A stretch of 62,568 nt of DNA, filler included, from Asterionella formosa (Eukaryota), in assembly GCA_002256025.1 (NCBI GenBank). It is 14 parts of 14 records of this genome, joined end to end, with 100 filler letters (N's around TTAATTAATTAA, not from the genome) between each part and the next. Parts side by side here need not be neighbours in the genome. Positions count along the whole stretch, not along the records: positions 49,262 to 53,631 come from NKIB01013567.1; 13 more parts are not named here. The stretch is one strand, 5' to 3'. Positions 4,388 to 58,791 of the stretch are shown here, in pieces; the stretch's first letter is position 1, and each line of letters begins with the position of its first letter. The notes beneath the pieces are model-generated. The model made no database searches and was not told the DNA's origin. It was given only the letters and a program-made list of their open reading frames with translations. Position numbers and translations under genes: made by a program.

Positions 4388-4487
4388 NNNNNNNNNNNNN
4401 NNNNNNNNNNNNNNNNNNNNNNNNNNNNNNNTTAATTAATTAANNNNNNNNNNNNNNNNNNNNNNNNNNNNNNNNNNNNNNNNNNNN
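4388..4487. other. Artificial contig-joining linker (N-TTAATTAATTAA-N). Repeated at 8874, 13360, 17841, 22320, 26795, 31272, 35744, 40217, 44691, 49162, 53632 and 58101
   Basis: Identical 100-nt N spacers carrying a six-frame stop linker, about every 4.47 kb. The intervening contigs are nearly equal in length and roughly decreasing, as expected for size-sorted concatenated contigs. Confidence 0.97.
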
Positions 4488-9326: not shown

Positions 9327-9523
9327 TGAGCGATCTTGCGCATCAATACAGATGTATATAGGGTTAGTGTTATATCATGTATGTATAAGAACTCAATAAT
9401 GAGAGAACTCGACTAACCCTCATTGTATACTTTGGTGTCGACTTGGAGAACGAGTTACACACAAGGATTAACAAATAAGCTCATATATTCAACAAATACT
9501 ACTACTTCTAGTTAGATACTTCA
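9327..9523 (+). mobile_element. 3' LTR (197 bp) of a Gypsy-like LTR family
   Basis: TG...CA ends, preceded by the purine tract GTGTGGGAGAG (PPT-like) and followed by CCTGG. It differs from 12900-13096 at 3 positions and is related to 41820-42026, which precedes a Gypsy-type gag. Confidence 0.85.
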
Positions 9524-10092
9524 CCTGGTACTCCTGGTCCCAGGCACTACCGGTAGGAGTACTCGCGCAGTAAACCATGGGACCGTAACAGGTACCGGTA
9601 CTCCAGGTACCAGGAACTTTACTCTGTACAGCAATTCCCCGTATTTTTTTCAGTATTTGTAATCGAGCATAGTAGGAGTCGAACCTGGCACCAAGTACCA
9701 GGTACTTTACCGGTAGTCGAATGAGTCTGGCGGAACGAGAAATCAGCATACGACTGGCCGTTTCGCACAGACAGACGCTCATCAATCCTGGACCTCCTGC
9801 CTCCCTGTTGCTTCCTTGCTTGCTTGGTTGGCTGTGAATGAAATCCAAATCCTCAGCCAACTCCTCGTTTATTTACGGGAATTTGCGCGCTGCTACATAA
9901 TGATATACTGGTACTATTATGTAGATGTGCGTAGGCGGGTGCAAATAGGTACGAGCCGAGCGCGATCGAAAGTATAATGCTATCTACCGACCACAGTAGC
10001 TACCGGTAGTCCGCTATACGCCCCAGTATTTTCTTACGATTTATGTAAAATAATTTTGGTCAGCCATATCGAGTTGCATCCCACCCACAACC

Positions 10093-11921
10093 ATGTCGGG
10101 CATGAACCAACCAGCGGCTACAGGATTGGTACGTTTAAGCTCCGTTAGAATCGATATTATCCGAGGAATAATGGAATGGAAATGTCTCAATAGCGAGACC
10201 AACGAAGATGTGTCAGCTACCTACATCGACGCCAGTTCCAATGCTGTCCGTGATGTGGTCTCCGTTCCCCACTCTCGCTCACTCTCTATCACTCACTCAC
10301 TCACACTGCAAACTTTCAGTTCCTCAACGGAACACGCGAGTCCGGAGCAGACGTGCGCATCGGAAACGTGACAGCCGCTCTCGCCGTTGCCAACATTGTC
10401 AAGTCGTCGCTGGGGCCAGTGGGGTTGGACAAAATGTTGGTGGACGACATTGGCGATGTGACCATCACCAACGACGGAGCCACCATTTTGAAGAATCTGG
10501 AAGTGGAACATCCAGCAGCCCGCGTTTTGGTGGACCTGGCGCAACTTCAGGACAAGGAAGTGGGAGATGGAACCACGTCCGTGGTTATCATTGCAGCAGA
10601 GCTGTTGCGGCGGGCCAATGAGCTGGTGCTGCAGGGGTTGCACCCAACCACCATTATCTCGGGATATAGAACGGCGTTAAAAGCAGCCATTGCATTTTTG
10701 AAGTCACACATGGTCCTGCAGGTTAACGACTTGGGAGACGAACACCTCCTCAATGCTGCCAAGACGAGCATGTCGTCCAAGATTATCGGCAAGGAATCGG
10801 ACTTTTTCGCAAAGCTAGCGGTCGAGGCGGTCAAGTCGGTCAAGATGAAGGGGCCAGAGGGAAAGATGAAATATCCGTTGTCCGCAATTCATATTTTAAA
10901 GGCTCATGGGAAGTCCAGTATTGAGTCACATTTAGTGCATGGGGGATTCGCCCTCAACGCGACACGGGCCGCCCAAGGAATGCCCATTGCTGTTGAAGGC
11001 GGCGTCAAAATTTGCTTCCTTGACATGAACTTACAACGTCATCGCATGGCCATGGGTGTGCAAGTTTTGGTAGACGACCCAGCAGAAATTGAAAATATCA
11101 AGAAGCGGGAGATGGACATTGTCAAGGAACGAATTCAAACAATTCTGGATACTGGCGCCAAGGTCGTTCTGACAACCAAAGGCGTTGATGACCTATGCAT
11201 GAAGTACTTTGTCGAAGCCGGAGTGATTTGTGCTAGACGTTGCAATAAGGATGATCTCAAACGGCTTGCTAAGGCTACGGGGGGGAAAGTTGTCACGACC
11301 ATGGCAGATATGGAAGGGAATGAGTCCTTTGAAGCAGACACCTTGGGATCATGTGATGCTGTGCGTGAAATGAGGGTTGGTGATGGGGAAATGTTGTACG
11401 TGTATGGATGCATGGGGAGTGGGGCGTCAACAATTGTCTTGCGAGGTGCCAATGAATACATGTTGGATGAAATGGACCGAGCCTTGCACGACGCCTTGTG
11501 TGTGGTGAAGCGCATGCTAGAGAGTAGCACGCTGGTCCCAGGCGGAGGTGCTGTGGAGGCGTCACTATCGGTATATTTGGACGAATTTGCCACCTCGCTT
11601 GGAACAAGAGAACAACTTGCTATTCAGGAATATGCTGCAGCTCTCTTGGTCATCCCCAAGACGTTGGCAGTAAATGCGGCCAAGGATTCAAGTGAATTGG
11701 TGGCACAGCTCCGGGCAGTCCATGCGAGAAGTCTTAAGGAAGGTGCTGACGAATCTCTCAAGTACATGGGGCTGGACTTGGTGGAGGGGACAATAAGAAA
11801 CAATTTGGAAGCTGGTGTGGTGGAGCCTGCCATGTCCAAGATCAAGTCTCTCCGATTTGCGACAGAAGCAGCTATCACTATTCTTCGAATTGATGATCGC
11901 ATTACACTTCATGCTAACTAG
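10093..11921 (+). CDS. CCT1: T-complex protein 1 subunit alpha (CCT-alpha). Exons 10093-10128 and 10320-11921
   Basis: Chaperonin motifs SSLGPVGLDKMLVDDIGDVTITNDGATIL, GDGTTSVV and alpha-specific KIKSLRFATEAAITILRIDD. A GT-AG intron (10129-10319) joins MSGMNQPAATGL in frame to FLNGTRESGADVR. Confidence 0.97.
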
Positions 11922-12560: not shown

Positions 12561-12899
12561 GATGGTGGCTATTGAAGCAGGGATGAATATATTTGGATAC
12601 CTGGTAGAGTGTCAAAAGGCAGGAGGAACGAAGAAATACTATTCTATTTTCCGGTTTTTTATATGAATGACAGTGACGGCTGTGAACTCTGATATTATGT
12701 ACAGTTCCATGTACTTAAACAGCTCTATATTATTTATTATGCTGTAGAGGAAGATGTATAATATAACAAAAGAAGCAGAACGAAGCAGCTGATAAATGTG
12801 TGAAAGTTCGAATGTCCCCGGCTTACATAGCTCGTATGATCCCGGTACCTTTTTTGCACAGCAACCGGTAGTCTAGTGTGTATGGTACAAGGTACCTGG

Positions 12900-13096
12900 T
12901 GAGCGATCTTGCGCATCAATACAGATGTATATAGGGTTAGTGTTATATCATATATGTATCAGAACTCAATAATGAGAGAACTCGACTAACCCTCATTGTA
13001 TACTTTGGTGTCGACTTGGAGAACGAGTTACACACAAGGATTAACAAATAAGCTCATATATTCAACAAATGCTACTACTTCTAGTTAGATACTTCA
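12900..13096 (+). mobile_element. 5' LTR (197 bp) of the same Gypsy-like family
   Basis: Near-identical to 9327-9523. Preceded by GGTACCTGG and followed by CTTTGAAT, like the 41820 copy. Confidence 0.85.
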
Positions 13097-13459
13097 CTTT
13101 GAATCTAATATTGTTGATGTCCTCTCAAGTTCCAGTGGTCCCATTGATGAAGGATAACAACATACTAAACATCAAGATTCAAACTTCTTTGTGTATCCTT
13201 ACAAGCCAGGTCCACATTTGGAGTCTTACAGAAAAGATATGATCAATTGACGCTCAGGGGAAGCTTGTTTATTGATTTCAGTAAATCCTGTGATATGGCT
13301 AACACATATATCTTCAGTCCAGCAGATTCCTTGCTTGTTCACCTACTGCTACAAAAGATNNNNNNNNNNNNNNNNNNNNNNNNNNNNNNNNNNNNNNNNN
13401 NNNTTAATTAATTAANNNNNNNNNNNNNNNNNNNNNNNNNNNNNNNNNNNNNNNNNNNN

Positions 13460-26684: not shown

Positions 26685-27321
26685 AGTGGCTGGAGGCGAT
26701 GTGGACAATTGAATCTATATGAGTCGGGAGGATGCCTTGTTGTTCACCCCTTTGTCCAATGATGCCGGTGTGCTGCATTTACCTGTTGCTTGGTNNNNNN
26801 NNNNNNNNNNNNNNNNNNNNNNNNNNNNNNNNNNNNNNTTAATTAATTAANNNNNNNNNNNNNNNNNNNNNNNNNNNNNNNNNNNNNNNNNNNNCAATTC
26901 CATCGTATCCTCTTGCTTCACTTACCACAAATCAATGCAACTGATGCATAAGTCTGTAATAGTAACTTGTCAGTAAATTCTTGAATAAGTAAGTTTCGGG
27001 TATCCAATGTTGTTGAATAAAACTTACCGGTACATTTTTGTCATCTTAACTTTGAGAGAAGGTAAACGTTTTGTCAGTTTTGTTCCAACAGAAGTGAATA
27101 GGTCCAACAAGCGACAAGAGCACTTACGCAATTTGGTTTTGTTTTACATTGGTGCTCCCCAACAAGCGAAACGAGCTGTTAAATCAACTGAGAAAAAAGG
27201 AAATGTGGCTGCGTTTAGTTAACAATTTGTTGTTGTCCTGCCTGCCTCCCAACGATTGTCATCCAAGTACCACATTGATGGCTTCATTACCTTAAACATT
27301 CTCCATCCTTCGAAGGCCAAA

Positions 27322-27606
27322 TGTTGAATATGTGTAACGGACATGTCGGTAACGGTTACACCAATTACAACGATATTGACAATGACCGCACCAACCATGC
27401 CAGCATGCAAGCTAACGAACAAGAGTGGATCACAGCTGAACCAAGGAATATCAGGATTAGAGATAGTGTGTCTGGTACCAGCGAAACTGGCTCACTTTAA
27501 TTTAATTATTTGGTTTTATAAACGATACCATCCCGGTGTGCTTTTTATCGTCGGATTCGTTGTTTTATGGACACGAAGACATATTGAAAACATTGTGGTT
27601 TCAACA
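27322..27606 (+). mobile_element. 5' LTR (285 bp) of CoDi-like Copia element A
   Basis: Terminal inverted repeat TGTTGAA...TTCAACA, ending 23 nt before the gag ATG at 27630. Confidence 0.8.
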
Positions 27607-27629
27607 TAATTAAATTAAAGTTAAATAAG

Positions 27630-30600
27630 ATGGACAAGGTGAAAACAGAAGGTGGGGACGCCGACACGAAGGTTGACAAGGATTTCGGCATTGATGCCAA
27701 GAAAAGAGGTCGCTTCAACTTCGGAAAGCAACAGGCATCCCGGACACCAGCCGCAACGAAATTCGAAGGCAAATGCAACGAATTAAGAGGAAATGTGTAT
27801 GACTGCTCGGATATGAAGCAAGTAGACCTATTCGCAAAGACGACGAAGGAGATTGCAGGTTTCGTAGGGCGCACCTACAAATACGGTGGTGACATACGAT
27901 TGGTGGTTGAGAACCTTGAGATGGTCAGCATCACTACACCTAAGGATCCACCAAAGGATTCTACACGCACAGAGGAACGAATTTGGGAGAAAGAAGTGGA
28001 TGAGTTTGTAAAGAGATCAACATACCTCAAAGAAAACATCAAGACACTATACTCCCTTGTATGGGGACAATGCACGGATATAATGCAGCAGAAGGTTGAG
28101 GCCACGGACATATTTGACACAATGTCAATGGAAGGCAATGGTTTGATTCTCCTTAAAATCATCAAGGACGTCAACTATAACTTCCAAAGCCAGAAATACC
28201 TGCCTCACTCCCTATACGAATCCAAACGCAGGTTCTATATGTGTGTCCAGGGACGAAACATGACGACACAGGTCTACCTAGAACACTTCCAGAACATGCT
28301 AGATGTTATTGATCACAGCGGAGGGACCATTGCTGGCGACTCAGGAATCGAGAACATGATTCTGAATGAAAAGACAACTAGCAAGGAGAACATGAATGAT
28401 CAACAGTTAAGTGAACTCAAGGCAGAGGTACTCAAGCGATTCACAGCAGTAGCATTCCTAGTAGGAGCTGATCGTGTACGCTACGGCCGTCTGGTTGATA
28501 ATATGGAGAACGACTTCCTACAAGGACGAAACAACTATCCCGAGACCGTCAGTGCAGCCTACCATCTACTAACAAACTGGAAGCAGGATCCACGGCATGG
28601 GCTACACGAAGTAGGGGCAGTTGGTGATGGCGTATCCTTTCACAATGTGAATGACAAAGATGGAACGACACTGAACAACAACAGCGAGAATGGCGCGCGG
28701 AAAAGGCCAAAAGGAAAGGCACACATCATGTGCCACCGATGCCAAAAGAAGGGGCACTACGCTACGGAATGTGAGGAGCCTGCACCTGTCCCTAGGAATT
28801 TGACCACCAGTACTCCTCCCACAGCTGAAACGACATCAACCCAGTCCGCCACCACACTACTAATGGATGGTGTGCATGAGGGAGAATTCGAGGAAAATGT
28901 ACACTTCCAATTTCTAAATCAAGGAGGAGTGAGTCTGAAAATTGGGCCCGATGGAAGGCTACCACGTACATGGATACTATTAGACAATCAGTCAACAGTT
29001 GATGTGTTCCATAACGCGGAACTCCTACGCAACATCCGTGTCCACACCAGTAAGATGGATATCCACTGCAACGCTGGTATAATCAGCACCCAACTCGTCT
29101 CATAGGAGACCTTCATGGATATGGAACAGTATGGTACAACCCAAAGGGAATCGCGAACATCCTGTCCCTCGCATGTGTCAAGGAGCATGGATACAGGGTA
29201 ACATTTGATAGCAGCCAGGGCAATGCATTCCATGTTCACAAACCTGACGGAACCTATAGAGTGTTCAAAGAATCAATGAAAGGCCTATACTACATGGATA
29301 CAAAGGATCGCTCTGGAGTCACCCTTATCAATACGGTAGACGATAACCGTACTAGCTACTCCCAACGTGACTACTCACAAGCTGTGCTAGCCCGAAAGAT
29401 ACAGAAGATTATTGGGCGTCCTAGTACCCGCACATTCATCAAGATTGTCGAGAACAACCTGTTCCCAAACTGCCCAATCACACGCGATGACATTATAGCG
29501 GCAGAACAAATCTTCGGGCCCGATGTGGGCTCGCTAAAAGGAAAAACAGTGCACCGTAGTTCAGTGCCAGTGAGGACCAACTCTACCACCATCCCCGCCG
29601 GGATTATCGACAAGTACCGTGTCGTGACACTTGCAGGTGACATCATGTTTGTCAACATTATGCCCTTCCTTGTCACCATATCAAGACACATCAAATTTAG
29701 CATGGGCTCCTCGAAAACCGATGGCTACCAACAATAATCAAGGCCATTGACAATGTGCGCAAACTCTACATAAAAAGAGGTTTCCAAATCGAAACAATCA
29801 TCATGGATGGACAATTTGACGGACTGCGGGCCAACTTAGCCGAAATGGGAATGACACTCAACAGTTCTGCAAATGACGAGCATGTCCCTGAGGTTGAATG
29901 CCACATTCGCACACTTAAAGAACGAGTGCGATCTGTCTACAACATGTTACCATTTGCCAAAATGCCAGCTCGTATGATTATCGAGCTTGTCTATTATTGT
30001 GGGTTCTGGCTAAACAGTTTCCCAGCCCACGGTGGAATATCTCCTACTCTCAGTCCACGCACTATAATTGCAGGCATGACCATTGACTACAACCATCACT
30101 GTAAACTTGAGTTTGGAACATACGCACAAGTCCACGAGGAACACGATAACAGCATGACTGCACGCACGGTTGGGGCCATTGCCCTACGCCCAACAGGAAA
30201 CCACCAGGGCGGACACTTCTTTTTCAGCCTAAGCACAGGTCGCGTCCTAAACCGCAGCCATTGGACTGTGCTGCCAATGCCCACTGATGTTATCGATCGC
30301 GTTCACAAAATGTCATGTCGGGATGAAACTGAAGTCACCCTATACTTTGCCACAAAACGCGGTCAGATTGAAGATGAGATGCATGACGATGTTGACGATG
30401 ACCCCTTTGATCCAGCCAACAATGACAATACTGACGAAGATGATGACGACAACGCTGATGCCGCAGCACCCGTCCACATCGTAGGAGTGAATGACAATAG
30501 CGATGTAGAAGGTGTAGAAGATGGAGACGAATACGATCTCGAAGCCACGGAACCAGGCAACGAACTAAACGAAAACACTGCCGAACTCAACGATGAAGAA

Positions 30601-31142
30601 GAAGTCGACAAGGAACCCAACCCGCCTGATAATGATGAACCAAGAGCTGACAACAGCGATGTAGATGGTGAAGACAAACACGATCCCGAAGCCACGGAAC
30701 CAGGCAACGGAATAAACGAAGACACTGCCAAACCCAACAATGAAGAAGAGGTCGATGAGGAACCCAGTATCGAACAACGGATTCAACAAATGGACGCCGC
30801 ATATGGCCAGAGACAACACCAATACGATCTGCGGGCTCGCAAGCCTTGCGACTATAGTCACCTACATGTCATACTAGAAGTCACCGTCATGACCCAACAC
30901 AACATAAAGAAAGGGCTAAAAGTATTCGGCGAAGCCGGTGTGGAGGCTGTGCTTAAGGAATTGAACCAATTACATGAACGTGGAGTACTCAAACCAACAA
31001 AAAACTTATCACATGAGCAGCGCACGGATGCACTACAATACCTCATGTTTTTGAAACAAAAACGCAATGGAACAATTAAGGGCCGTGGCTGTGCTGATGG
31101 TCGGAAGCAACGTCAGTACACAACTAAGGAAGAAGCTACATC
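27630..31142 (+). mobile_element. CoDi-like Ty1/Copia polyprotein (gag, protease, integrase, start of RT), degenerate
   Basis: CCHC knuckle CHRCQKKGHYATEC, protease WILLDNQSTVDVF, integrase DIMFV/MDGQF/EHVPEVE, RT start KGRGCADGRKQR. Frameshifts near 29090 and 29705. RT is cut off at about 31142. Confidence 0.93.
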
Positions 31143-31260
31143 TAAGACGCGAAATACGCCACTTTTCGAAATTTCGTCTACGTATGAGTGTTAATTATGT
31201 GGTACTTCACATGCATTAATGCCACTCTTCACGTAAAAAAGATTACTTTTAACTGTTTCA
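31143..31260 (+). repeat. 118-bp dispersed repeat that truncates the Copia RT. Inverted copy at 46549-46666
   Basis: Reverse-complement match with 3 mismatches in 118 nt. Confidence 0.9.
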
Positions 31261-31371
31261 TGTGAAGTTTTNNNNNNNNNNNNNNNNNNNNNNNNNNNNN
31301 NNNNNNNNNNNNNNNTTAATTAATTAANNNNNNNNNNNNNNNNNNNNNNNNNNNNNNNNNNNNNNNNNNNN

Positions 31372-33001: not shown

Positions 33002-33820
33002 ACTTCTGCCCTTCTTTCAACCATAAACATATACCTAGGACATTTAATTAAGGTGTAATTAAACAGCTGTATATATTCTTCGTATCGTAGATAGATATAT
33101 GTGTTGTACAATGTATTGTGGGATGTGGAACACCTGGAAAAAGTTGCAGATCATTTCATTCTGCCTTCCCTATCGTAATTCGCATTGCTAATAGCTGTAC
33201 CGTAATAGGGTTGGCTGACCATTGTGGTTGTGTCATGCATTTCGCATGCATGATTCTTACTGGTATCATAATCTTCGGAACCTGGTAGCAGGTACCAGTA
33301 CCTNNNNNNNNNNNNNNNNNNNNNNNNNNNNNNNNNNNNNNNNNNNNNNNNNNNNNNNNNNNNNNNNNNNNNNNNNNNNNNNNNNNNNNNNNNNNNNNNN
33401 NNNNNNNNNNNNNNNNNNNNNNNNNNNNNNNNNNNNNNNNNNNNNNNNNNNNNNNNNNNNNNNNNNNNNNNNNNNNNNNNNNNNNNNNNNNNNNNNNNNN
33501 NNNNNNNNNNNNNNNNNNNNNNNNNNNNNNNNNNNNNNNNNNNNNNNNNNNNNNNNNNNNNNNNNNNNNNNNNNNNNNNNNNNNNNNNNNNNNNNNNNNN
33601 NNNNNNNNNNNNNNNNNNNNNNNNNNNNNNNNNNNNNNNNNNNNNNNNNNNNNNNNNNNNNNNNNNNNNNNNNNNNNNNNNNNNNNNNNNNNNNNNNNNN
33701 NNNNNNNNNNNNNNNNNNNNNNNNNNNNNNNNNNNNNNNNNNNNNNNNNNNNNNNNNNNNNNNNNNNNNNNNNNNNNNNNNNNNNNNNNNNNNNNNNNNN
33801 NNNNNNNNNNNNNNNNNNNT

Positions 33821-35400: not shown

Positions 35401-38027
35401 GTTGTGGCGCTTGTGATACCATTTGATGTTCTGTTGGTGACATTTCCATGGTGGCACTTGTTGGTTGTTGGATGAAGTGAGTGCTGAGGTGCTTGTATAA
35501 ATCTGTTGATTGTCGTTTACAATAGCTGCATTCAAATACAGACAACTATACATGTGCTCTGGTGAGGAGTAAAATTATATCTACATAAAGCAATGTAGAT
35601 ATAAACGTCTTCATTCTTTTTGAACTGGAACTCTATCAATGTGGTGCCAATTTCTACTACATAGTTTAAAAATTACGAACTATATTTGTATCATGGGAAT
35701 ACACAGAAACAACTTCCCTGTTCCACAGCAATTTTACAACCCTNNNNNNNNNNNNNNNNNNNNNNNNNNNNNNNNNNNNNNNNNNNNTTAATTAATTAAN
35801 NNNNNNNNNNNNNNNNNNNNNNNNNNNNNNNNNNNNNNNNNNNAAGCAACTCACTTACCGGTACTTCATGCATACGGTAGGCAGGTGAATCCTTTTGGTG
35901 ATTTCATGAAAAAATCTCGTAGGTGGTACTGTTTCAGGTACCTGGTACAAGTAGTCGCGCCGAGAGGTCGCAGCTGATGTTCTCCATTTAGGTAGAGGAG
36001 TAAAATACTGGTAAGCACAATGACGTCGTTGCATATATTGTTATTGACAAAAACGAATCTGTTCGGACACTCAGTGAATCTATTGACGGAAATACTTTCT
36101 TATACCTGCTGTACATATATATATATATGAACACACACATATATATATAAGTTGTTTCCAGCTGAATGGAGTAAAAATTAGCTTTTTCATTTCATTTCTC
36201 GTCGTCAGCAAACCTTTGGGACTAAATACGGAAGAGGGTGCGCTCTCTGATATCAAAAAATTATTATTATATCACGTGTGTATGATTAAAACACAAATTA
36301 TTTTGGCGATTTTGTTATGTAATAATGTCATCACGCTCTCATAATAAAGAAATTTTAGATTAGTGATCTGACATTTTTATATAAATTATGCCATCATGAG
36401 TGAACTTAAAACAGGAGACAGAGAAATAGAAATTTCAGCAAGAAGCAAGCCTCTCATCCACAAATCAGGTCAACAGAACTTTCACAACAAGGTGTTGCCT
36501 TCCACTAGTGACTTTTCACTCCAAAATGAAGACATTCAGAGGAACTTGCATCGTTTGTTTGCCCATGCTATGGACTGAGCCCAACCTATTCTTGCTTTTC
36601 AACAACAAGTCTTATCAATCCCCATAGGGATGCAGGTGAAATCAATCATGTTTTCGATGAAATTAAAAGTCAATTCCATCAAAGGCAAGAGTGATTGGCA
36701 GCAAGCCCAACTTATTACTGACTTTCAACAACAAGATTGTTTCAATTACCATCATGGGGACGGAGGTGAAATCAATCCAGTTTTTGATGACATTTGAAAA
36801 TCAATTTCAACAGCTGCAAGAGAAATTAGCAGCAAATCCAAATGTTTTGCAGCCTTGTAGATGGAGATGATGAGGTACCAGGAGTGGAGAGGTTCAGTGG
36901 ACTGTGTTTTGTCTGGAAAATAAGTTCCACGCAGCAGACGCCATTGTACAAAGGATGGTACAGTAACAAAGGTCTGTGCATAGTGAACCTGATATCTTCA
37001 TTTACAAGCACAGCAAATGAATTTTAGTTGATGGCAGTGTTGACGATGTAGTGACATTAAAGCTAGCAAATAAATGTATAGAATGATATAATGCGCTCAG
37101 TTTCTTCATTTCGCCTTATAGTCATCAATTAGTACAGACATTGCACTTGATTTGATAGTGGCTGCAACCACTAAGATTGTATTGCAGGTGGATTGTGAGC
37201 AAGAAGACATGATCACAACAAAACTGGAAGCAGACGATTGATAATACCTTTAGGATGATCAATGTGTATATGTATATGCATACTGACATCTTTTTTGGTA
37301 AGAGCAAGCCATTTCAGGTATTAGCAAGCAAGTCTTGAAATATTACAAGAAATTATATGTAGTCATTTATGCCTATATATCTACTTATATAATACACTGT
37401 TATTTTTAACTGTACAAAAAATTGTCGAGGTGCAAACCGGAGTTACCAAATTTAGTCAACACAACCAGGNNNNNNNNNNNNNNNNNNNNNNNNNNNNNNN
37501 NNNNNNNNNNNNNNNNNNNNNNNNNNNNNNNNNNNNNNNNNNNNNNNNNNNNNNNNNNNNNNNNNNNNNNNNNNNNNNNNNNNNNNNNNNNNNNNNNNNN
37601 NNNNNNNNNNNNNNNNNNNNNNNNNNNNNNNNNNNNNNNNNNNNNNNNNNNNNNNNNNNNNNNNNNNNNNNNNNNNNNNNNNNNNNNNNNNNNNNNNNNN
37701 NNNNNNNNNNNNNNNNNNNNNNNNNNNNNNNNNNNNNNNNNNNNNNNNNNNNNNNNNNNNNNNNNNNNNNNNNNNNNNNNNNNNNNNNNNNNNNNNNNNN
37801 NNNNNNNNNNNNNNNNNNNNNNNNNNNNNNNNNNNNNNNNNNNNNNNNNNNNNNNNNNNNNNNNNNNNNNNNNNNNNNNNNNNNNNNNACACACACACAC
37901 ACAAACACACAATAATAGATCACCATAGTTTCTATGAATAGTTCCTATTGTGGGTTTCATTGTTTTCCAATACTTGATATTAAAAAAATAATAAATCCCT
38001 CCTTGTTGACAGTCACTACTAGAAGTA

Positions 38028-40559: not shown

Positions 40560-40980
40560 AACTTGAGCCATGGCATCACTGGAACCCTTGTTGATCAGGC
40601 TAGTACAGTATCGCAATCATGAGGAATGAAAAGAAACAGCGCGAAGGGCGATTGCAAGAAATAAACGATACACAGCCGGTCTTCATGTTGCTGCAGGCAG
40701 GTACTTCAACTTTTGAAGTGGTTGATGAAGAGTTGAAAAGGAAGAGGCGTGCCGAAGGAGTGCAGTGTGAGCGAGAGTATAGTAGCTAAGAAAATAGATG
40801 CACACACGGCGCTTGCAAACAAGTTTGATGCAATCAGAACTCTAAACAAACAGTCAACAGAGTGCTGGACAGTAGCGCAAACGAAAACAACGGCAGCATG
40901 TTATAAGCGAGCAGGCAATCTTCCATTACCAACAACGAAGCAACTTCTACTTACCAGATACCATGACACTATGATGTGTG
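40560..40980 (+). pseudogene. Degraded ORF remnant, possibly a transposase C-terminus
   Basis: Coding-like but frameshifted. WTVAQ...YKRAGNLPLPTTKQLLLTRY resembles helical tails I associate with diatom DNA-transposon proteins (pattern recall only). Confidence 0.3.
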
Positions 40981-41034
40981 GCGATGCTGAAGGCAATACT
41001 GGTACACGCCCGAGGTGGTCTCTTGCCTGCGAGG

Positions 41035-41626
41035 CCTTAAGGTCTTCTAGTGTTAGGGAGGGCATAGCCTCAACCATTGTTACCACTTCTGAGTACTCCT
41101 TAGGTATTTTGTCAAGTATGTGGGCAATCATCTCGAGATCCTTCTTTTCGTAAGCAGAATCAATCGTCGCCATTCGATTCCTCAACAACTCGAGTTGGAT
41201 GAACCACTCATCTGGGTCTTGCGTCTCCCCCTCACAGATGCACTTGTTGAACTGTCCTGACAGTTGGATTAAGTCGCTTGTAGCATTAGGAACATAGCGA
41301 GCCTTGAGATAGGTCCAAGCAAGGAATGCATCGCCGTCTTGATGATTCTTTGTCTTGGCTTGGTTAACCAAACCAAACGCAATCCCAGTGCAACTCATAA
41401 TCAGAAGCTGGTATGCGCGGTCGTTCATCTCGTAGATTTTCTTGACATCGTCTTTGTCTGTAGTTTCGTAGACAGCATTGCTGCATGGAATGGTATCCTT
41501 TATGTAGGCATTCTTGAATCCTCTTGTGTTGGCTAGTGCAAGTGTCTTCACACTCCACTCATGCCAATTGGCGTCCTCGCCATCAAACTTCACAAGGCGA
41601 ATGGTCTCACCTTTGTCTTCAGTCAT
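41035..41626 (-). mobile_element. Copia gag fragment (N-terminal FDG..W..W motif plus UBN2-like region), 3'-truncated
   Basis: MTEDKGETIRLVKFDGEDANWHEWSVK...DAFLAWTYLKARY...DPDEWFIQLELLR...IAHILDKIPKEYSEVV. Confidence 0.85.
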
Positions 41627-41819
41627 GTTGCAAAACGAAGTTGATCCGCTTGCAAGCATGTTAAATTCTTCTGCAGTCTGGCTGCAATGCTAGCTCTTTC
41701 TAGACAAGCTCAGTGTAATAAAACTTTCTGTTCTAATCCAACCTTATTGTGAGCTTATTTGATCTATCTTGTAATCGTTCACATGACCAATTATTTGACA
41801 ACGCGGTACCGGTACCAGG

Positions 41820-42026
41820 TGAGCAATCCTACACATCGATAAAGATGTATATAGTAGAGTTAGGGTTATATCAAATACTATATTGGAATTCAGTAATGAG
41901 AGAACTCGACTAACACCCATTCTATACTTTGATGTCAGTTCAGGAAATGAGTTGTACATAAGGATTAATTAATAAGCTCATATATTCAACAAACTCTACT
42001 ACTAGTACTTCTAGTTAGATACTTCA
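41820..42026 (+). mobile_element. 5' LTR (207 bp) of a Gypsy-like element, diverged member of the 9327/12900 family
   Basis: TGAGC...AGATACTTCA, colinear with the other copies. Left flank is GGTACCAGG, and a gag ORF begins 40 nt downstream. Confidence 0.85.
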
Positions 42027-42065
42027 CTTTGAATTCAAAAAGAGTCGAATTAGAAGACAACAAAC

Positions 42066-44690: not shown

Positions 44691-46483
44691 NNNNNNNNNN
44701 NNNNNNNNNNNNNNNNNNNNNNNNNNNNNNNNNNTTAATTAATTAANNNNNNNNNNNNNNNNNNNNNNNNNNNNNNNNNNNNNNNNNNNNTTCATCAAAG
44801 CACCAAGCTATTTCATCATGCTGGTGGTAGTTTGTGGATTGAGAATGAATTCATTTTCATTACATTACATTTGATTTGATTTTCTACAACAGGTACTGCG
44901 GGTTGGTGTGGGATCCTTTCGAAAACAGCAGTGAAAAGTCACATAAAATACTGCCCTCCTCACTATCACTCCCTTAGCAAAGGAGAAAGTACCACCGAAT
45001 CTATATAATATACGTTTTTCTTTCTGTTTTTTTACTATACATCCACAATATGTAAACAGATTCTGCCTCCTTTTATTTCACCTTTCTTCTATGATCCAGC
45101 CAGGTCAAGATGATCATATCGATCAACAGTATGATATACCGGGAAAGTATTTTATAATACTGTCCCATCCATTATTCCTTATTATCATAAATGTTCAACA
45201 AATAATATAATGGCTCATGTGAACAATGGGAAAATTAACCCTATGAGTTAGCCACTTGGTATATTTCCACAATACTTGAAAGACTGAATAACCATATCAA
45301 CAACTATGGGCTCTGTTGTCTTGAATGAATGAACCAGAAACATCTTAAACCAGAAACTTCTGAATGTGAAATTATATATGTATATATATATATGTATATA
45401 TATTTATATTTATATATATAAAATTATATTTATGGAAGACGTACAGAGAAATTCACATGCTCAAACCCGCAACAACGCAACAGACAAGATTAATGGAGAA
45501 GAAAACGAGTTCCAAAAAAGGGAAATATGGAAGTAATCCTTTTTGCACCTGCCTTTTGAGTAGTCCACTTGGATTTTCCTCGTTAGTAATCAAAATCAAA
45601 GCCATATATATAGTAGTCGACTTTTGGTGGAAATATATTGATGAACATTGCTTTGAATAGAGCTATTTATGTTTTAGAAAATGAAGAAACGTTGAAGTTT
45701 GCTTTTTCATGATGTCTGACGATCAAAAAAGGTCCAATGTTTTGTACTCCCATCTAAGTAAAGGGGTACGAGACACCAGTCAGGTTCTACGGAATAGCTG
45801 TAAAAGAAAAAGGCTTCTTAATCAGGGCAGAAAAATGGGGAGTTTTGTCTCCCCAAAAATTGGACTATCAAGAAAAGACGACGCTTGTACAAACCGCATG
45901 TTTGTTTGATCCTGTTCTGTGAATCATTTGTCGTCGTATGCACATATGTACCGGCAACGGTATATAATGTTCGGCCAATAGTATACCAGCATTGCCTTGG
46001 GGTACTCCTGGTACCAGTAAAGGTAGTTACCAGTTACTCCGTCCCAGATACCACCAGTAGCTGGTACCAGGGATATACGGAAAACGTGCTTTTACACATT
46101 GAAGTGAATTGTTGACATACGTTTAAAAAGTTTCGCCTCAAAACTAAAAGCATTATACGTCGACTTCCTTTGGGATGGGCCAGCGGGATAAAATGCATGC
46201 ATGCCGGCCTTTCCCCCAATGAAACGTTTAACTCAAGGTTCCTGCATTTCAACCCTAAGGCAAAAATTAAAATATTGTTCAGGATTTTCGAAGTGGGTGT
46301 GCTAACCACTAAGCCATTCCCCCAAAGAAATGTAGTTGCTACAATAAAAATCGTTTGCAATACGCTAACCACTATTCGATTCCATGTATTTGATTAGTAT
46401 ACAATGGCTACTGAGGGAATGATGTCATGATCACTGTCGGCAAATTATCAGCGATTTGTTGTAGTTGTTGCTGACATAATGAT

Positions 46484-46487
46484 GATG

Positions 46488-46552
<65 letters not shown>
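46484..46552. repeat. Heptamer microsatellite (GATGAAT), 9 copies plus a partial copy
   Basis: Perfect tandem units abutting the 118-bp repeat at 46549. Confidence 0.97.
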
Positions 46553-46553
<1 letters not shown>

Positions 46554-47149
46554 CCGTTAAAAGTAATCTTTTTTACGTGAAGAGTGGCATTAATGCATGT
46601 GAAGTCCCACATAATTAACACTCATACGTAGACGAAATTTCGAAAAGTGGCGTATTTCGCGGCTTATATGTATTTGTCAACAGGATAAAGCTAGTTGGTT
46701 TCAAAATCATTATTTCTTACTTTTTATCATGTTTATACTTATACTTGTCAAATAATTTTTAACGATAGACCTTCTGCCTCTAGAGCCCCCCCCCTCCCCC
46801 CGCCCCCCTCTTTGCTTGCTGAAAATGATTACGTGCAGGTCGTTGTTGGTTGTTGATTGTTTGGCATCAGCTTAAAGACAGTGAACCATTGAATCCCAGC
46901 AATCCGCCTGATTCTACTACCCTTTTGGTGTCAATTAAAAAATTTCAAGGCAGTCCATGCATTGTTCCAATGCAATCAGGACCTTCTCTCTAGACAAAGG
47001 CAGCTGAAGGAAGCCCCGGCTCTTTGCGGTCACATCCAGCATCCTCTCCATCAAAATCCTAAATTCGTCTTGATACTGCATTCCTCATTTTACATCCACA
47101 CCAAATAACAACCTTGTTGCCATCACTTATTGTTGCAAAAGATACATCA

Positions 47150-48495
47150 GGATTATCAGAAATATTTCCGTTGGCCTATATTCTTCACTTGATCTCCAAA
47201 ATGCCACAGGCAATATGCAATATGCAATATGCAATTGCCACAGTGCACAGTGGAAACTGCCAACCAACCGGAACACGCTGTAATATTCCATCGTGTGGAT
47301 TGCAAGAACAGCTGTGACTCAAATGAAGACTTCCCGGATGTATCAACTTTGTAAGCACCATTGTGTTCATTGTTTATCTTCATTTCATTCCTCATTCCAT
47401 TCTTCTGGTCCTTACTCACCTCTAGATTTGACCCCACTACCTTCTGGATCAACTCAACCATTCAAGACTCCAACAATACACCTCCAAATGTCCGATTATC
47501 AAGCATTTTTTCGAATTCCTTTAGCAGTGATGCCCCAAGTGCCTGTAGTTCGCCTCTCATGCTCCTGACGGCTGCAAGATGGGCAACATGAGGAGGAGAA
47601 GGTATACCTGTCAACTACACAGCAAATGAGGATTCTTCCTCGCATGAAAAATATCGAACAAAACCATTTTGTTCATCAAGTGAAAAAACCTCCCTTGATG
47701 TGTAGTAGCTAGATAGCAGTCTTACTCAATGCCGACTTGTCAGTACAAAGCTGTTGGAGATGTTTTCTGTGGTGCAGGATACATGCTAGTCGAATACAAA
47801 GAAATGGAAGCACCATAACTTGCCCACCAATCACATCACCAAACAGGGAACATAAAGCCAGAATCACTTTTCCATCAAGCTATGATGTTTGCCATCTTGA
47901 TCATTTTTTTAAATAAAAACATCTTTCAGATCATCATCAAAGTATCAAAGTCGTCTGTAGCCTTCATCTTATACTTCTTAAACAGATTGTAAAGTGATGT
48001 TTTCTTGTTTTATACATCTTTTAACTAAAAAGACAGCCTGTCACTGGATTACTGAGGGTCCTAAGATACTTTGCAAAGTCTGTAGGCTTTATTTCCTCAA
48101 ATTTAATTTGATGCAATCCTGTAGAGACTTCCCATTCAAGAAAAACGCGTATCACTGACCTTGCTTTCTTCATATGATGAATGGGAATATTGTCAATATC
48201 ATCAGTGATATATCTGATTTGCGCTAGCATCTCTGGTCCTAGCAGCTGGTACTCATGTTTATATATATAAACAGAAATATTTCATGTTCAGACTGGTGCC
48301 AGCTCATTGTTGATTTTGCTCTTGTGTTCCTCTGATATTTGCTAAAATCATGAGCTGTAAGGACTTCATTTTATTTTCTTCATTCTTCGCTTTTTTTGTA
48401 TCATGTTCTCTAATAATATTCGCAATATATTCGGACTTTCCTGGAACTCCCTGGTGGGAAGATCTGGTAATCAGCCAATTGCACGCACTATACAC
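47150..48495 (-). mobile_element. Degenerate Crypton-like (tyrosine recombinase) element remnants
   Basis: Fragments FAKYLRTL...SLYNLFKKY and DGILQRVPVGWQFP...LWHFGD resemble stramenopile Crypton proteins. The catalytic core is not recognisable. Confidence 0.4.
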
Positions 48496-49261
48496 TCAAA
48501 ATTCCACGTAGCGGTTTCAACCCACTTCATTGGAGGTCTGACTGGCTCACCAATTCCGAAATGATGAAAAATCTTAAAATATTTCCATGTGTTTATGCTG
48601 CCTGTAAGCGTTATAAAGTTTGAAACGGAAGAGCGCTGCCACCTTTCACAGCAGAATAGCTGACTACCAACTTCAATTTGCTGACTGCGGACTTCTTGTT
48701 GCGAACTGCTGACTTGATTTGCTGAAAATTTGAAATATTCGCTAACTGCTGACTTCATTTGCTGACTACTGACATGCAGTCGCTGACTGCAAACTTCAAC
48801 ATGCTGACGTCAAGCACGCTACTTTGTACACTGGGAGGTACGGGAAACTCCGTACTTCCTCGCTACGTGGAAAACTCCTTATGTCTACTATCGTGCACAG
48901 ACCTCGCTGTTTTTTTTCAAATATCTTGCAAAATTTTAGTTGCGCGTTCTTCTGCGAAGTTCGCGTACTTTTTGAAAAGTACGCGCGACTACCATTTCAT
49001 CGAATTGAGTTTGAGCTCTGATCAGGCATTATACATTCACTCAACACATTTCCCTGCAAAAGGTAGTACCGGTATATAACATCGATCTGTTGTTGTTCTT
49101 GTTCATGTTTGCTGATTTTGCTGCTTGTTTCTTGTTTGCTTTGTTGCTTTGTTGCTTTGTTNNNNNNNNNNNNNNNNNNNNNNNNNNNNNNNNNNNNNNN
49201 NNNNNTTAATTAATTAANNNNNNNNNNNNNNNNNNNNNNNNNNNNNNNNNNNNNNNNNNNN

Positions 49262-52200
49262 ACGACGTCCGGGTCCACATGCGAAATCTTGTTGTCGTCT
49301 ACATACCACGCAATCGTACACTGCTTCCCGTTGATTGTGCAGTTAGCAATGCAAGAGTCGTAAGGGTTTAACACAAAACCCATCTCTTTTAGGGTGTTGT
49401 GGAATAAATCATACCATAGTAGGGCAGATTTGACGCACCCATAAATCGCTTTCACTAGCCTGACGTACAACACTTTGTTTCCTTTCTCGTTGGACACAAA
49501 ATTCGTGTGCTCTGGATTCATGTTGCATACTATATCGACTGATTCACCAGTGAATTTCATAACAACGAAATCATCCATGTCTGCTTTTAAATACGCACCC
49601 GCCACATCTGCTGTGGCGACATCTCTTCCTTCATGTGCATCGATCATGATGGACAACATGAGTGCATCGGTGGATACTGTTGGAGATGCCGTCTGCGACT
49701 TGTCATAAAGTGATCGCTGCGGTCTCCCGTCGGCTACTGTACGCCCCTTGAGGCGCCCGTCTCTCTTCTATTTGATGAAATTGATGGCTCGGAGCGCTCC
49801 CGTCCTCTGTTCCCTGGTAAGGGAGTTCGCGCTTACGGGTTCGTACACATCCAGCTCCTCTAGTTGTGCAAATTCTCTCATCAGGGCGGCCTCCGCCGCT
49901 TTCCCGTGTTTCTTTATTCCCGCCTTCGCGGTCATCTGGTTCATTACATACCCAAAAATATGTTTACTTGTGTTGTCGTCTGCGTATGACATCTTTGTTC
50001 GAAATCCGCGTTGTACGAACTGTCTTGGTGGAAAGTATGACTTGTTGCTATGCGGTGCATCAATGGCCTGCTTGAACTGTTCACTTGTGGCTGCCCGGCG
50101 TTGTCGGGGATTATATGGTCTGTGTTCTTCCGCCAACGCTCCTTGATCTGCCACCTCAATGATCGCTGTCTCTTCCATAGGCGCTCCTTGGTTTTCGTCG
50201 ATAGGCGCCCCTTGTTCCAAGTGCGCTCCTTGGTCTTCGTTGTGTTCTTGTTGTATGTAGTCATTGTAGACAAGCGCGACATCATCAATGTCGATCGTGT
50301 TTGGGTCTCCTGGGTTTGGCTCGACTGGATTTGGCTCGACTAGCAGTGCATCGTCCAAAACCGTAGGGTGTGGCCCATCATGGAGCAGATCGGCAACTTC
50401 GTGATCATCGATGGCATCAAAATCCGCGGAGTTAAAATCGTCAATAGGTTGATGTGCGGCAGGCTCGTAGTCCCGGTCGTATTCGTTGTTGTCAATGTGG
50501 TGATCGGTGCGCCATTCTACAGCTAGGCCTCTGGCCTGGATGGGGGGCTGCCCCTCATGTGCCGCGAGCGCCTCCACGCGGGCAATGGCGGTGTCCGTCA
50601 TGGGCAACTCCGTCCAATTATGTCGGGAAATTTTATTGCCGGTTGCAAGAGACATGAAGTAGTAGTCACCTTGGACATTACCAGTGGGGGTAAGGGCAAT
50701 TGCCCCGAGGGAACGCGCTTGAAGGGTGTTGGATGGGTCGTTGTCTTCAAAAACTTGGACGTAGGTCCCAAACTCAATGCGCATTTGGTTGTATTCTGGG
50801 TTGGCAGCGCCCGTGACAATGCATGCAGGGCTCATGGTGTCTGAGATGCCGTTTGCCCATGGGAACTGGTTTAGACATCGAACGGCATCGATCACCATAT
50901 GGTTGATGATCACCCGTGGAAGACGCTTGAAAGGTAGGCCGTGTGCGCACGAGCGTAGTCGCTCCTTGATGGTTCGGATGGACCGTTCCACTTCACCAAC
51001 GTGACTGTCGGCAGGTACAATGTTTAATGCGATAGGTTGCAATTCCTCACGAACACACTCGAGTTCACTGTCAGCATGCACATCACAAACCTGTAAACCG
51101 CGTAGGTGGTAGAGGCGGACCGCACTCCGAATTTTGCGTAGAATGGTAGTCTTGGTCCGGTCGGGAACCAGGTCCACGGTTCGGAAACCGATGCCGCGTG
51201 AGATGGTATGAAAAAATGGTAGACCCTGCACAAAGAAGAAATCGGCGCACAACGTTACGTTGTGGTGATGCTCCAGGATTGGGGCAGGAATCGGTTCGGC
51301 CACAAACGTTGGCGCTCTTGGGGCGGCGCGCGACCGCGTAGTTTTACCTTTTATGTCAGCGATGTCTGGACCGTAAATAATGAGGGCGCGCTTGGCGTCG
51401 TCTGGCGTCACTGGGCAATTTCTAATCAAGTTGTTCCATAGGATGGATTGGAATTCCACCTCGGCAGGCCGCCCGATCTTTCTATACAAGTCTCTGGCTG
51501 TATTGGCTGATTGAATTTCACGTCGTGAGAATAGTTTCTTCTGTTCTGCTACTGTGGATAGCATGGTGTAACCTGTAACATTGTCGTTAGTATCGTTGTT
51601 ACAACTAAACACATATAGTCCTGAGGGGTGCTCAAGAAATTTCATCACAGTTCCATCGAGTCTATGGACAAGCATCGCGGGCTCGTCCGCAGAGTCCATG
51701 GTGACACGGCATACCTTGCGCACCTCAGCAAGGGAGAGGATGTTGGCAATTGATTCACGGTTGTACCAAACCTTACCCAAGTTGGGAAAATCTCCTACCA
51801 TGTTGGATTTCTGGTAGCCCCCATTTGTGAGCGCCCTGAGTAGTGTCGACTGCGAGTCAAGAAGGATCCACTTAGGATCAATCCCAGGGTCGCCGGTCTG
51901 TGTAAGCATGTATGCATACTGCGTCAATGTAGTGCCTGAGGTCGTCGATCCCTGCCTGTCAGGGCAGTCTCCCGTGTAGTGTCCTAGGCTTTGGCAGTTG
52001 TAACAGATGATGCCATCATGTAACACTCCATTATTGCCTGCGATTTCGCCACGTTGCGCAAACGTCATTGCGCTGGCCTCAGGGCTTCCAGTCGGCTGGG
52101 AGCGTGGTGTATCTTTCCTGACATTGGTGTTCGTTGGAGTTCTGTAGTTTACGAGAAGGCTTTGGGCTGACAACAAATCGGTGGGGTACTGGTCAATTCC

Positions 52201-53094
52201 CATTGCATACTGGTTTGACAGGTCAGCGATGAGGGTGCCATACCTGGTGGGGTCAGCACTTTGAATCAAAGCGATTGCAAGGGTGCGTTCACGCGCGATC
52301 TCCTTTCGCTCTTCAATGCTACGCCAATTCCTGTCCTGATCCTGGAAGGATACCAGTTTATAATTTGCTGCCACGGTGCCGCCATGGTACTCGATGGTCT
52401 CAGCCCATCCTCGCAAACACTCAACGTAGTCTTCTGCGGACTGTCCTTGTAACTGACGACAAGTGAGGAAACTGGTCTGGGCGTCCAAAAGTGCAATGAA
52501 ACCATTCCTGCTCTGATCGAACTGTAAAGTAATCGACTTGATCTGTTTTAGAAGCCAAAAATAATCGTTGTTGGCAGTCTTGTCCTTGTAGTCATCGTGC
52601 GTTTTGACCTTTGCCTTCATGTCATCATTACACTGGCCCCAAATCACCGCATACACTGTTGCTAGGTTGCTCTTCAGGTAATGATTGCGCTTGACATACG
52701 TTTTTACTTCTTCTGCGAAAATCATTTTCATGGTCAGTCCTGCATCATCATCTAGTTCATCTGGCATGTCTACCATGGGAACCGCCATGGTGTCGGCAAA
52801 CAAAGGGGCAAGGTCTTCAGAGTACTTCAGTGTTTTCCTCACATATCCATCTACAACTTCTAACGTTTTGGCGTACTGGCGTCTGTCACTTTGTTCTTCA
52901 TAGCATTCAAATACGTTTCCGTTCATGCCCTCTGTGCTGCCCTTAAAAATGCCACGGTTGTTGCTTGTCGCTTGTGTCCTTCCCTGGCCGCCACGGCTCC
53001 CGCGCGGACGGTTGTCCCTTCGCCCTCTCCCACCGGTGCTGCCGCGTCCACTCGCTAAGCTGCCGCTGGTCGATGCGTCTGGGGTGGCACTCAT
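49262..53094 (-). mobile_element. CoDi-like Ty1/Copia polyprotein B (gag, protease, integrase, RT), cut by the gap
   Basis: CYNCQSLGHYTGDC, WILLDSQST, ADFFFV/HADSE/HVGEVERSIRTIKER, RT ADVAGAYL...KAIYGCVKSALLWY...YVDD. In-frame TAG at 49768-49770 and an apparent deletion in the protease. Confidence 0.95.
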
Positions 53095-53291
53095 GGGGTT
53101 CGTTGGTCAAATCTCTTCAAATTGTCGCTGTTGGTTCCTTGATTGGTGGCTGCGGCCTTCAGCTGCGCTACTCGAATCTGTAAAATGTTCAAAACCGCGA
53201 TTGAGATGTCGAAACTCCAGCCTTCCATGTGAGTCTCAAAAAGAACGGCTGTTCCTTTTGTTTTACTTTATTTTATTTTATCTCGAAACAA

Positions 53292-53631
53292 TGTTGTTCC
53301 AACTACCGTAATCGACCGTATCGTAGGCCTTGAACCTAGTACTGTGTTAATCGAATACAGTTGATGAAATTGATAGCAACGAAGGAGTTGTCAAACTTAA
53401 ACTTTCACTTTACTAACTGGATTGTTTCGAGATAATGGTCTCGAAACACTCTTATTTCTCACATTGCATTTTAACATTTTTTCCTGACCTCTGATTGCTT
53501 TTCCTTGCGTTGTGCCTTTTACCACGTCAGCCCAGGTAAATCTTGGTAGCGGCTGTACGGTTTTAACTGTAGTACTGTTCTCTCTCGTATCTACTATACC
53601 CTTCACTCCTGTCCTGTGGCAGTCAGCTCGC
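53292..53631 (-). mobile_element. 5' LTR of Copia element B (its 5' end lies in the gap)
   Basis: Ends in ...GGAACAACA on the minus strand, about 200 nt upstream of the gag ATG. The boundary is inferred from the CAACA terminus. Confidence 0.7.
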
Positions 53632-58100: not shown

Positions 58101-58791
58101 NNNNNNNNNNNNNNNNNNNNNNNNNNNNNNNNNNNNNNNNNNNNTTAATTAATTAANNNNNNNNNNNNNNNNNNNNNNNNNNNNNNNNNNNNNNNNNNNN
58201 TAAGTTACAAACAGCAGTGTTGGAGCCCATTTATTGATCGATACTTTGCTTCTCATTCAATCTTCGACTGACACATTCTTCTACAGAAATATGCATCAGT
58301 TACTTCCTCAATTTGTGGTAAGTGAAGATAGAAGCGAAATGAATGTTGTTGTGTAAGCAAAACATGAACAGCTAACAATGAATTGCTTCTCTTTGTTAGT
58401 ATGATTGGGACAACGAAACGGTTTAAATAGTAATAGGAAAATGCGTGAATGCAAACTCAGAACAACCCTCAGGAGTAAATGGAACAAAGCAAGCAGGGGA
58501 ACAACGGCAAGGCAACCAGTACAACAACCTTCAGAATTGGATTGAGGGAGGGGGAGGTGGAAGTGAAAGCGGCACCAACAATCATTGCGATGAGAGCATT
58601 GTAGAAAATTCTGTAGCCACTTAAGATATGATAGAATCATAGAACCATTCTTAGCTAAATATAGTTCTAAATGTCGATCAATTTCATCCTATTTTAGACA
58701 GTGATATCGATGAGAATTACGATCATGCTAAGATAGATGTATGACAAAAGTATACACATCATATGACCATGTTTAACTAATTATATGATGC

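Follow-up and report, generated by a model that had tools for sequence, protein, structure and literature searches.

A clade of diatom Ty1/Copia retrotransposons that probably primes reverse transcription with the start of its own LTR transcript

Introduction

Self-priming of reverse transcription has been demonstrated for the Ty3/Gypsy retrotransposon Tf1, in which RNase H cuts the duplex to generate the primer, and proposed for the Tf1/sushi elements more generally (PMC7175516, PMC4600332). In the self-primed group, which includes Tf1/Tf2 of Schizosaccharomyces pombe and Tj1 of S. japonicus, the RNA 5′ end, lying within the 5′ LTR, is described as complementary to a primer binding site (PBS) just past the LTR; a tRNA site is lacking, and the R-U5 between the two pairing segments forms a loop. 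Among Ty1/Copia elements, the plant TAR lineage (Houba, Osr-1) is described as lacking a tRNA PBS and, on sequence grounds, is predicted to self-prime (Neumann et al. 2019, PMC6317226). The fungal GalEa Copia elements are likewise described as lacking a tRNA PBS, and have at the PBS position a Conserved Hairpin Site that takes in the last A of the 5′ LTR; this 9-bp site is palindromic and pairs with nearby downstream sequence, its authors having found no complement to it in the LTR (PMC5445492). The Copia elements primed by a whole or half tRNA-Met differ in having a lineage-constant, tRNA-complementary PBS.

For the diatoms, the main text of the paper on the CoDi Copia elements contains nothing on tRNA, priming or the primer binding site (PMC2806351). 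Across the literature searched, which excepts supplements, Repbase notes and subscription journals, we found no paper tying self-priming to diatom or other stramenopile elements. Here we describe diatom Copia elements in which the start of the predicted LTR transcript is complementary to the sequence at the LTR end, and show that this pairing is maintained across a clade while the pairing sequences themselves turn over.

Results

Layout and affinities of element B

The whole stretch of DNA that was analysed, 62,568 nt of the diatom Asterionella formosa (hereinafter the window), consists of 14 unplaced contigs of ~4.4 kb each joined by N44-TTAATTAATTAA-N44 linkers (4388-4487, 8874-8973 ... 58101-58200); longer stretches of N occupy 33304-33819 and 37470-37888. 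As the window is made of joined contigs, neighbouring features on different contigs are not physically linked. One contig is filled by a retroelement, element B, which in element sense displays the order partial LTR, leader, Gag-PR-INT frame and start of the reverse transcriptase (RT):

49262-53631, minus strand: contig of element B, the element filling the whole of it
53292-53631, minus strand: 5′ LTR of element B, with ~13 nt of its start lost at the contig end and ending ...CAACA at 53292
53439-53451, minus strand: "arm 0", 13 nt of U3 that resemble the PBS, with 92% complementarity to 53420-53432 and able to hairpin locally with arm 1
53436, minus strand: predicted transcription start, the A of an initiator-like CCA, inferred from the CA/TCA conserved before arm 1
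53421-53435, minus strand: arm 1, proposed self-primer at the start of R, TTATCTCGAAACAAT, then CC; perfect complement of 53278-53292
53293-53420, minus strand: R-U5 loop of 128 nt, which the pairing of arms 1 and 2 closes in the element B fold
near 53321-53342, minus strand: possible U5 hairpin, only suggestive
53278-53292, minus strand: arm 2, proposed PBS, ATTGTTTCGAGATAA; its first base is the last A of the LTR
49768-53106, minus strand: Gag (CCHC)-protease-integrase frame, 1112 codons, with a terminal TAA at 49768-49770
49263-49767, minus strand: first part of a Copia-type RT (RVT_2), 168 codons, Pfam PF07727, E 2.3e-14, cut by the contig end

A protein search recovered a 1642-residue full-length polyprotein (P0001) that is 92% identical to element B and whose residues 1-1240 map to window positions 52926-49264. 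An RVT_2 domain is also present in its residues 1072-1306 (PF07727, E 8.5e-19) and is followed by only ~330 residues, the last 77 of which are LTR-encoded. Pfam searches of element B and P0001 recovered no integrase match, and a PDB sequence search with the family profile returned zinc-knuckle matches only and no integrase. In a 30-protein alignment of the family (A1), D580 and D637 are invariant and E673 is nearly so; these residues lie upstream of RVT_2 with the spacing of a D,D-35-E motif, which we take to be of the integrase type. With an integrase-like motif preceding an RVT_2-type RT, element B is by its domain order a Ty1/Copia element. As its RT is RVT_2 and the integrase-like motif lies before the RT, it is by the same token not a member of the Tf1/sushi clade of Ty3/Gypsy, and would be Tf1-like in mechanism only.

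The TAA that separates the Gag-PR-INT frame from the RT lies opposite a Glu at P0001 residue 1066, and contigs from each of the four sequencing runs compared carry C and not A at position 49770, giving GAA on the element strand (the comparison used assembled contigs throughout, with window 53251-53287 masked). Because all four runs give GAA, the TAA is private to the copy in the window, being either a private stop or an assembly error.

Identity and end of the LTR

Residues 1566-1636, at the C-terminus of P0001, correspond to 53630-53418 with 94% identity, so that the segment 53292-53631 is found both upstream of gag and at the end of pol. In run X4, a DNA contig links 49262, in the RT, via 972 further letters to 53631-53324, and these 972 letters fit the missing RT-RNase H part together with the ~13 nt of the LTR start. 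Since the polyprotein ends inside 53292-53631 and the X4 contig runs from the RT into it, this segment, which the initial annotation had taken for an LTR, is a true LTR. In run X1, the loose ends of 13 contigs extend past 53631, and on the element strand their consensus puts a TGTTG, the inverted counterpart of the terminal CAACA, 13 nt ahead of the contig end. A second copy of the element B LTR, the 3′ LTR included, was not found within the 62,568-nt window.

On the minus strand the text of element B reads ...GGAACAACA, ending at 53292, and homology to the LTR ends of its relatives places the end of the LTR at this position. CAACA is a nearly invariant column block of an alignment of family leaders (A2, see below), and it is the proven LTR end in four relatives whose 3′ LTR runs into flanking DNA: L008 has a TGTTG...CAACA LTR with the 5-bp target duplication CTGTA; L059 has the same termini (CGACA in the 5′ copy) with the target duplication CACAG; and in L024 and L050 the 3′ copy ends ...CAACA and is followed by unrelated DNA. 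TG...CA termini with a short target duplication, a feature of Copia elements, are seen directly in the relatives, and are ascribed to element B by its own end and by homology.

The pol frame of the element B family passes through U3 and arm 1 and stops ~20 nt past arm 1, the last ~77 residues being encoded by U3 and arm 1 (window 53397-53631, minus strand; P0001 residues 1560-1642). Close to the C-terminus the family alignment displays a nearly invariant EERVG, and in L008 and L059 GAGGA(T/G)CG stands immediately before the 3′ LTR, which opens with TGTTGAG; this coding motif appears to span the polypurine tract and the TGTTG of the LTR start.

U3 itself seems, from the copies compared, to be far more variable between copies than R-U5. 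At 53448-53458, contigs match from the R-U5 side up to this point and then diverge into different upstream sequences, and in L050 the repeat common to both ends begins exactly at arm 1, the two end copies being alike only from there onwards. The loose contig ends clustered at 53448-53458 were considered as a start site, and this was rejected as they are present in DNA and RNA runs alike; being the same in both, they represent U3 variants.

An inverted repeat joins the predicted start of R to the LTR end

The complementarity between a segment inside the LTR and the LTR end, from which the initial annotation had started, is a perfect 15-nt inverted repeat that pairs 53421-53435 with 53278-53292 across 128 nt, with arm 1 standing directly after CCA. 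The annotation had set beside it a second element of the window, element A, for which it claimed the same register and pairing of the terminal LTR A, and both points hold:

26895-31271, plus strand: contig of element A
27494-27509, plus strand: arm 1 of element A, 16 nt, perfect complement of 27606-27621
27606-27621, plus strand: arm 2 of element A, the proposed PBS, starting at the A of ...CAACA

The arms of element A are 96 nt apart. Folding of the 5′ leader, which had been suggested as a check, closes the stem in both elements: in element B the 15-bp stem is closed in the minimum-energy as well as in the centroid fold (-41.4 kcal/mol, z -3.81), and the fold of the element A leader closes its own stem (-29.7 kcal/mol, z -2.96), none of 200 shuffles being as good in either case. 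Compared with P0001, element A is 27% identical in Gag and 41% identical in PR-INT, and among the loci described below L078 comes closest to it, at 53% identity; at these identities, elements A and B are placed as distant members of one Copia clade. The end of the element A contig (31137-31261, 125 nt) recurs inverted at 46548-46672, on the contig 44791-49161, with 96.8% identity, by which the latter is assigned as another fragment of the element A family.

The pairing is widespread in the family

Named relatives of element B are annotated in the diatom Fragilaria crotonensis, with 52-65% identity. Scanning metagenome contigs with alignment A1 yielded 79 loci, 45 of them with a recognisable Gag N-terminus, of which 39 have at least 250 nt upstream. 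We searched the 900 nt before gag in each for the longest perfect inverted repeat with a loop of 30-450 nt. In 31 of the 39 loci this repeat has the geometry of element B, a figure that is free of prior selection for the repeat. By comparison, in 780 mononucleotide shuffles of the 39 upstream regions the longest perfect inverted repeat never exceeded 13 nt. One further contig, L053, begins inside arm 1 and has a full arm 1, with a 15/15 match, in its 3′ LTR copy, while three (L006, L007 and L031) begin downstream of the expected arm 1 and are excluded from the assessable loci. Thus, the pattern is present in 32 of 36 assessable loci (31 plus L053). The four without pairing are L001, L021, L022 and L041; nothing resembling an LTR precedes gag in L021, and in L041 the text following the 5′ repeat is unlike that following the 3′ repeat.

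In an integrase tree of 38 rows, paired loci are found in every major branch and the four unpaired ones are scattered singly. As it is present in every major branch, the pairing is inherited and ancestral to the sampled clade. Elements A and B, which the initial annotation had counted as independent instances, are therefore not independent: they belong to one Copia clade and received the trait by descent.

For the anatomy of the pairing we used 33 elements, namely the 31 loci together with A and B. The arms are 15 nt long in 24 of them, 16 in five, 14 in three and 11 in one, and the loop measures 95-132 nt throughout. Arm 1 is immediately preceded by CA in 28 elements (TCA in 22) and immediately followed by CC in 23, and in 28 the LTR's terminal A is also the first base of arm 2. 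There are 32 distinct arm 1 sequences among the 33 elements and equally 32 distinct PBS sequences. A canonical tRNA PBS following the LTR, which had been named among the outcomes that would overturn the self-priming reading, is not in evidence: TGG is absent from -2 to +10 of the LTR end in all 33 elements. The window itself contains no tRNA gene with which the PBS might be compared. As regards the element termini, no TATA-like positional signal was found upstream of arm 1 in the family, and none of the loci ends in poly(A); these points, like the four loci without pairing, weigh against the self-priming reading.

These data bear on whether the repeat might be fortuitous, or the LTR boundary misplaced with a canonical tRNA site nearby, a reading for which the absence of element B's 3′ LTR from the window leaves some room. 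Against it, no shuffle reaches even 14 nt, the same register recurs in 32 further elements, the identity of the LTR is established by P0001 and the X4 contig, and no TGG lies near the boundary. On these four grounds we reject it, its probability being negligible.

The specificity of the arms is marked. Cognate arms agree at 14.88 of 15 positions and non-cognate arms at 7.73 of 15 (n=1054), with at least 14 matches in 1.9% of the 1054 non-cognate comparisons. Such family-specific arms would suit pairing within one RNA and pairing between two equally well, and cis and trans pairing look alike in sequence data; hence arm 1 could in principle prime in trans, either as the 5′ end of the co-packaged second RNA or as a short capped fragment of an LTR transcript. 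However, the loop is tightly kept within 95-132 nt in the 33 elements, a distance that a trans mode would not constrain, and the minimum-energy folds close the stem in cis. We accordingly regard priming in trans as quite improbable, and favour priming by the arm 1 of the same RNA molecule.

Covariation of the arms

To examine the helix across the clade, we used an alignment of 32 leaders (A2) made with MAFFT and not fitted to structure, from which L039 was omitted as its segment spans contig ends. The helix corresponds to columns 14-28 paired with columns 224-238, arm 1 of element B occupying columns 14-28. Of its 474 cells 92.0% are paired, as against 62.0 +/- 1.5 in shuffled alignments; this is an upper view, because loci entered A2 on account of an inverted repeat already found, the unselected measure being the 31 of 39 given above. 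Both sides change in 14 of the 15 pairs, there are 128 double-change cells compared to 33.9 +/- 4.8 in the shuffled alignments, and none of 500 shuffles scores as high. Registers slid along the alignment are 42-57% paired. RNAalifold, unaided, recovers 13 of the 15 pairs, and no pairs besides these. Cells with G-U or U-G number just 5 of 474. Thus, the arm sequences differ between elements while the pairing persists, and the proposal of the initial annotation, that pairing preserved through complete sequence turnover points to a fold-back, gains considerably in weight, now resting on 33 elements, 32 arm sequences and strong covariation where it had rested on two elements.

Such covariation demonstrates pairing and not priming, and this is the main consideration in favour of the helix being a conserved RNA structure with some other role, e.g., packaging, dimerisation, translation control or an aid to strand transfer, comparable to the U5-leader stems of retroviruses, with a different RNA serving as the primer. 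Consonant with such a role, the leader is structured beyond this helix, having a second, weaker covarying hairpin in U5 (see below), and the hairpin that fungal GalEa Copia elements keep at the PBS position is of obscure role (PMC5445492). On the other hand, the start of arm 2 coincides with the LTR end, the site of a primer 3′ end, in 28 of 33 elements; the diversity of the PBS sequences, combined with the lack of TGG, means that no shared cellular primer fits; and the scarcity of G-U cells would be unusual if only RNA shape were under selection. We therefore consider another role for the helix unlikely, if somewhat less so than priming in trans, and retain self-priming as the preferred reading.

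A proposed priming cycle

In LTR elements, the end of U5 is set by the position of the primer's 3′ end. Since arm 2 begins at the LTR end and, for all its diversity among the elements, invariably finds its match in the arm 1 of the same element, arm 1 is the simplest candidate for the primer. We accordingly propose, with a good deal of confidence, that element B belongs to a diatom clade of Ty1/Copia elements that self-prime their reverse transcription as Tf1 does.

In the cycle that we envisage, transcription would begin at the A of the conserved (T)CA, position 53436 in element B. This start is a prediction drawn solely from the conserved CA/TCA before arm 1. Nucleotides 2-16 of the RNA, constituting arm 1, would then fold back across the ~128-nt R-U5 loop and pair with arm 2, the PBS, over 15 nt beginning with the last LTR base. 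RNase H would be expected to cut between arm 1 and the conserved CC, and the 3′-OH of arm 1 thus freed could be extended through U5 and R to yield minus-strand strong-stop DNA. With the first base pair using the terminal A of the LTR, one primer nucleotide would stay on the cDNA end. The Tf1 primer, too, is reportedly not removed. Plus-strand strong-stop synthesis would finally recopy the primer into the PBS. If so, a change in arm 1 would reach arm 2 in one or two cycles, since the primer is recopied in this scheme. Such recopying of the PBS from the primer would also explain the near-perfect Watson-Crick arms, the few G-U pairs and the free divergence between families.

PBS-like copies in U3 and a hairpin in U5

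Element B further displays arm 0, a copy of its own PBS in U3. Copies of the cognate PBS of at least 8 nt within 70 nt upstream of arm 1 are found in 7 of 31 elements, B included, as compared to 0.75% of 930 non-cognate comparisons. The other loci with an arm 0 are L002, L012, L015, L039, L048 and L052, in which it lies in U3, 3-35 nt before arm 1. One may speculate that a start between arm 0 and arm 1 would leave only the 3′ copy of arm 1 masked.

The second candidate structure is a U5 hairpin located ~30-50 nt before the LTR end (53321-53342, minus strand, in element B; columns 33-55 of alignment A3), with a T-rich loop and a covarying stem. It is 68.5% paired as against 53.4% in controls, with 60 double-change cells as against 31, in a test that is biased inasmuch as the hairpin was drawn by eye from the same sequences that were scored. 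RNAalifold applied to the last 63 nt of U5 returned no consensus pairs. The hairpin recalls the U5 stem-loop of Tf1, which is said to be needed for priming.

Occurrence and a third Copia-like element

Fifteen sequencing runs, mostly freshwater metagenomes along with one freshwater metatranscriptome, each contain roughly half, or more, of the words sampled from the element B contig, and estuary metatranscriptomes contain a fraction of 0.19-0.48 of these words. In two RNA libraries from two studies, contigs cover most of element B at 90-99% identity; what these libraries attest is the presence of the family in them, which is not proof of transcription.

The window has a third Copia-like element at 40901-42040 (minus strand), with a Retrotran_gag_2 Gag (gag at 41689-40901). 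It shows only a 10-nt inverted repeat, with a geometry unlike that of A and B. Its LTR-like unit of ~205 bp has copies at 9326-9524 and 12899-13097 (98.5% identical), which lie to either side of a TCP-1/cpn60 chaperonin gene (10254-11921) on a different contig. In the third element the unit is followed by CCTGGTACC..., which may represent a TGG-type site.

Discussion

The diatom elements compare with each of the described systems in part. With the Tf1 group they share the complementarity of a stretch inside the 5′ LTR, in the diatom elements the predicted RNA 5′ end, to a PBS at the end of that LTR, the lack of a tRNA site and the R-U5 loop. They differ in being Copia elements with RVT_2 and the integrase before the RT, Tf1 being Gypsy; in a duplex of 15-16 bp in elements A and B as against 11 in Tf1; in that the pairing takes in the last LTR base; in their diatom host; and in being known here from sequence alone. 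The plant TAR lineage is the nearer parallel in being Copia, in lacking a tRNA PBS and in having its self-priming predicted from sequence; it differs in comprising land-plant elements, the likeness being one of published description. GalEa resembles the diatom elements in the inclusion of the final LTR A in its site, whereas the diatom arm 2 is non-palindromic and has its partner in the LTR, 95-132 nt upstream. With the tRNA-primed Copia elements, the diatom clade has in common the TG...CA LTRs, the 5-bp target duplication and the order Gag-PR-INT-RT-RH, the contrast being that the diatom PBS varies per element and matches the element's own LTR. The type of mechanism is hence already known, and the diatom Copia clade is best seen as a new and very well supported case of it.

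A broader model can be sketched, which we advance tentatively, rating it at slightly less than an even chance. It holds that a widespread clade of diatom Copia elements does without host tRNA primers and that each family instead carries a 15-nt primer/PBS "barcode" from +2 of the transcript, which would be recopied in every cycle and could drift yet stay paired; that co-resident families, such as A and B, would consequently be unable to cross-prime; and that some elements, B among them, would use a decoy PBS in U3 to mask the 3′ copy of the primer.

Self-priming has so far been demonstrated only in Gypsy elements of the Tf1 type and predicted in one plant Copia lineage, so that the diatom Copia elements would constitute a third setting, for which the sequence evidence is unusually clean, with dozens of natural compensatory changes in a single 15-bp helix at the LTR end. 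For annotation, a simple rule follows: the LTR ends in CAACA, and the PBS is the reverse complement of the 15 nt that follow the (T)CA of the LTR, located ~115 nt upstream. LTR finders that depend on a tRNA site will overlook the PBS of these elements. The position of arm 1, in turn, predicts the transcription start of each family. Copia elements are abundant in diatoms and are found in many freshwater, estuarine and marine samples, and this clade offers a natural system for studying the co-evolution of a primer and its binding site.
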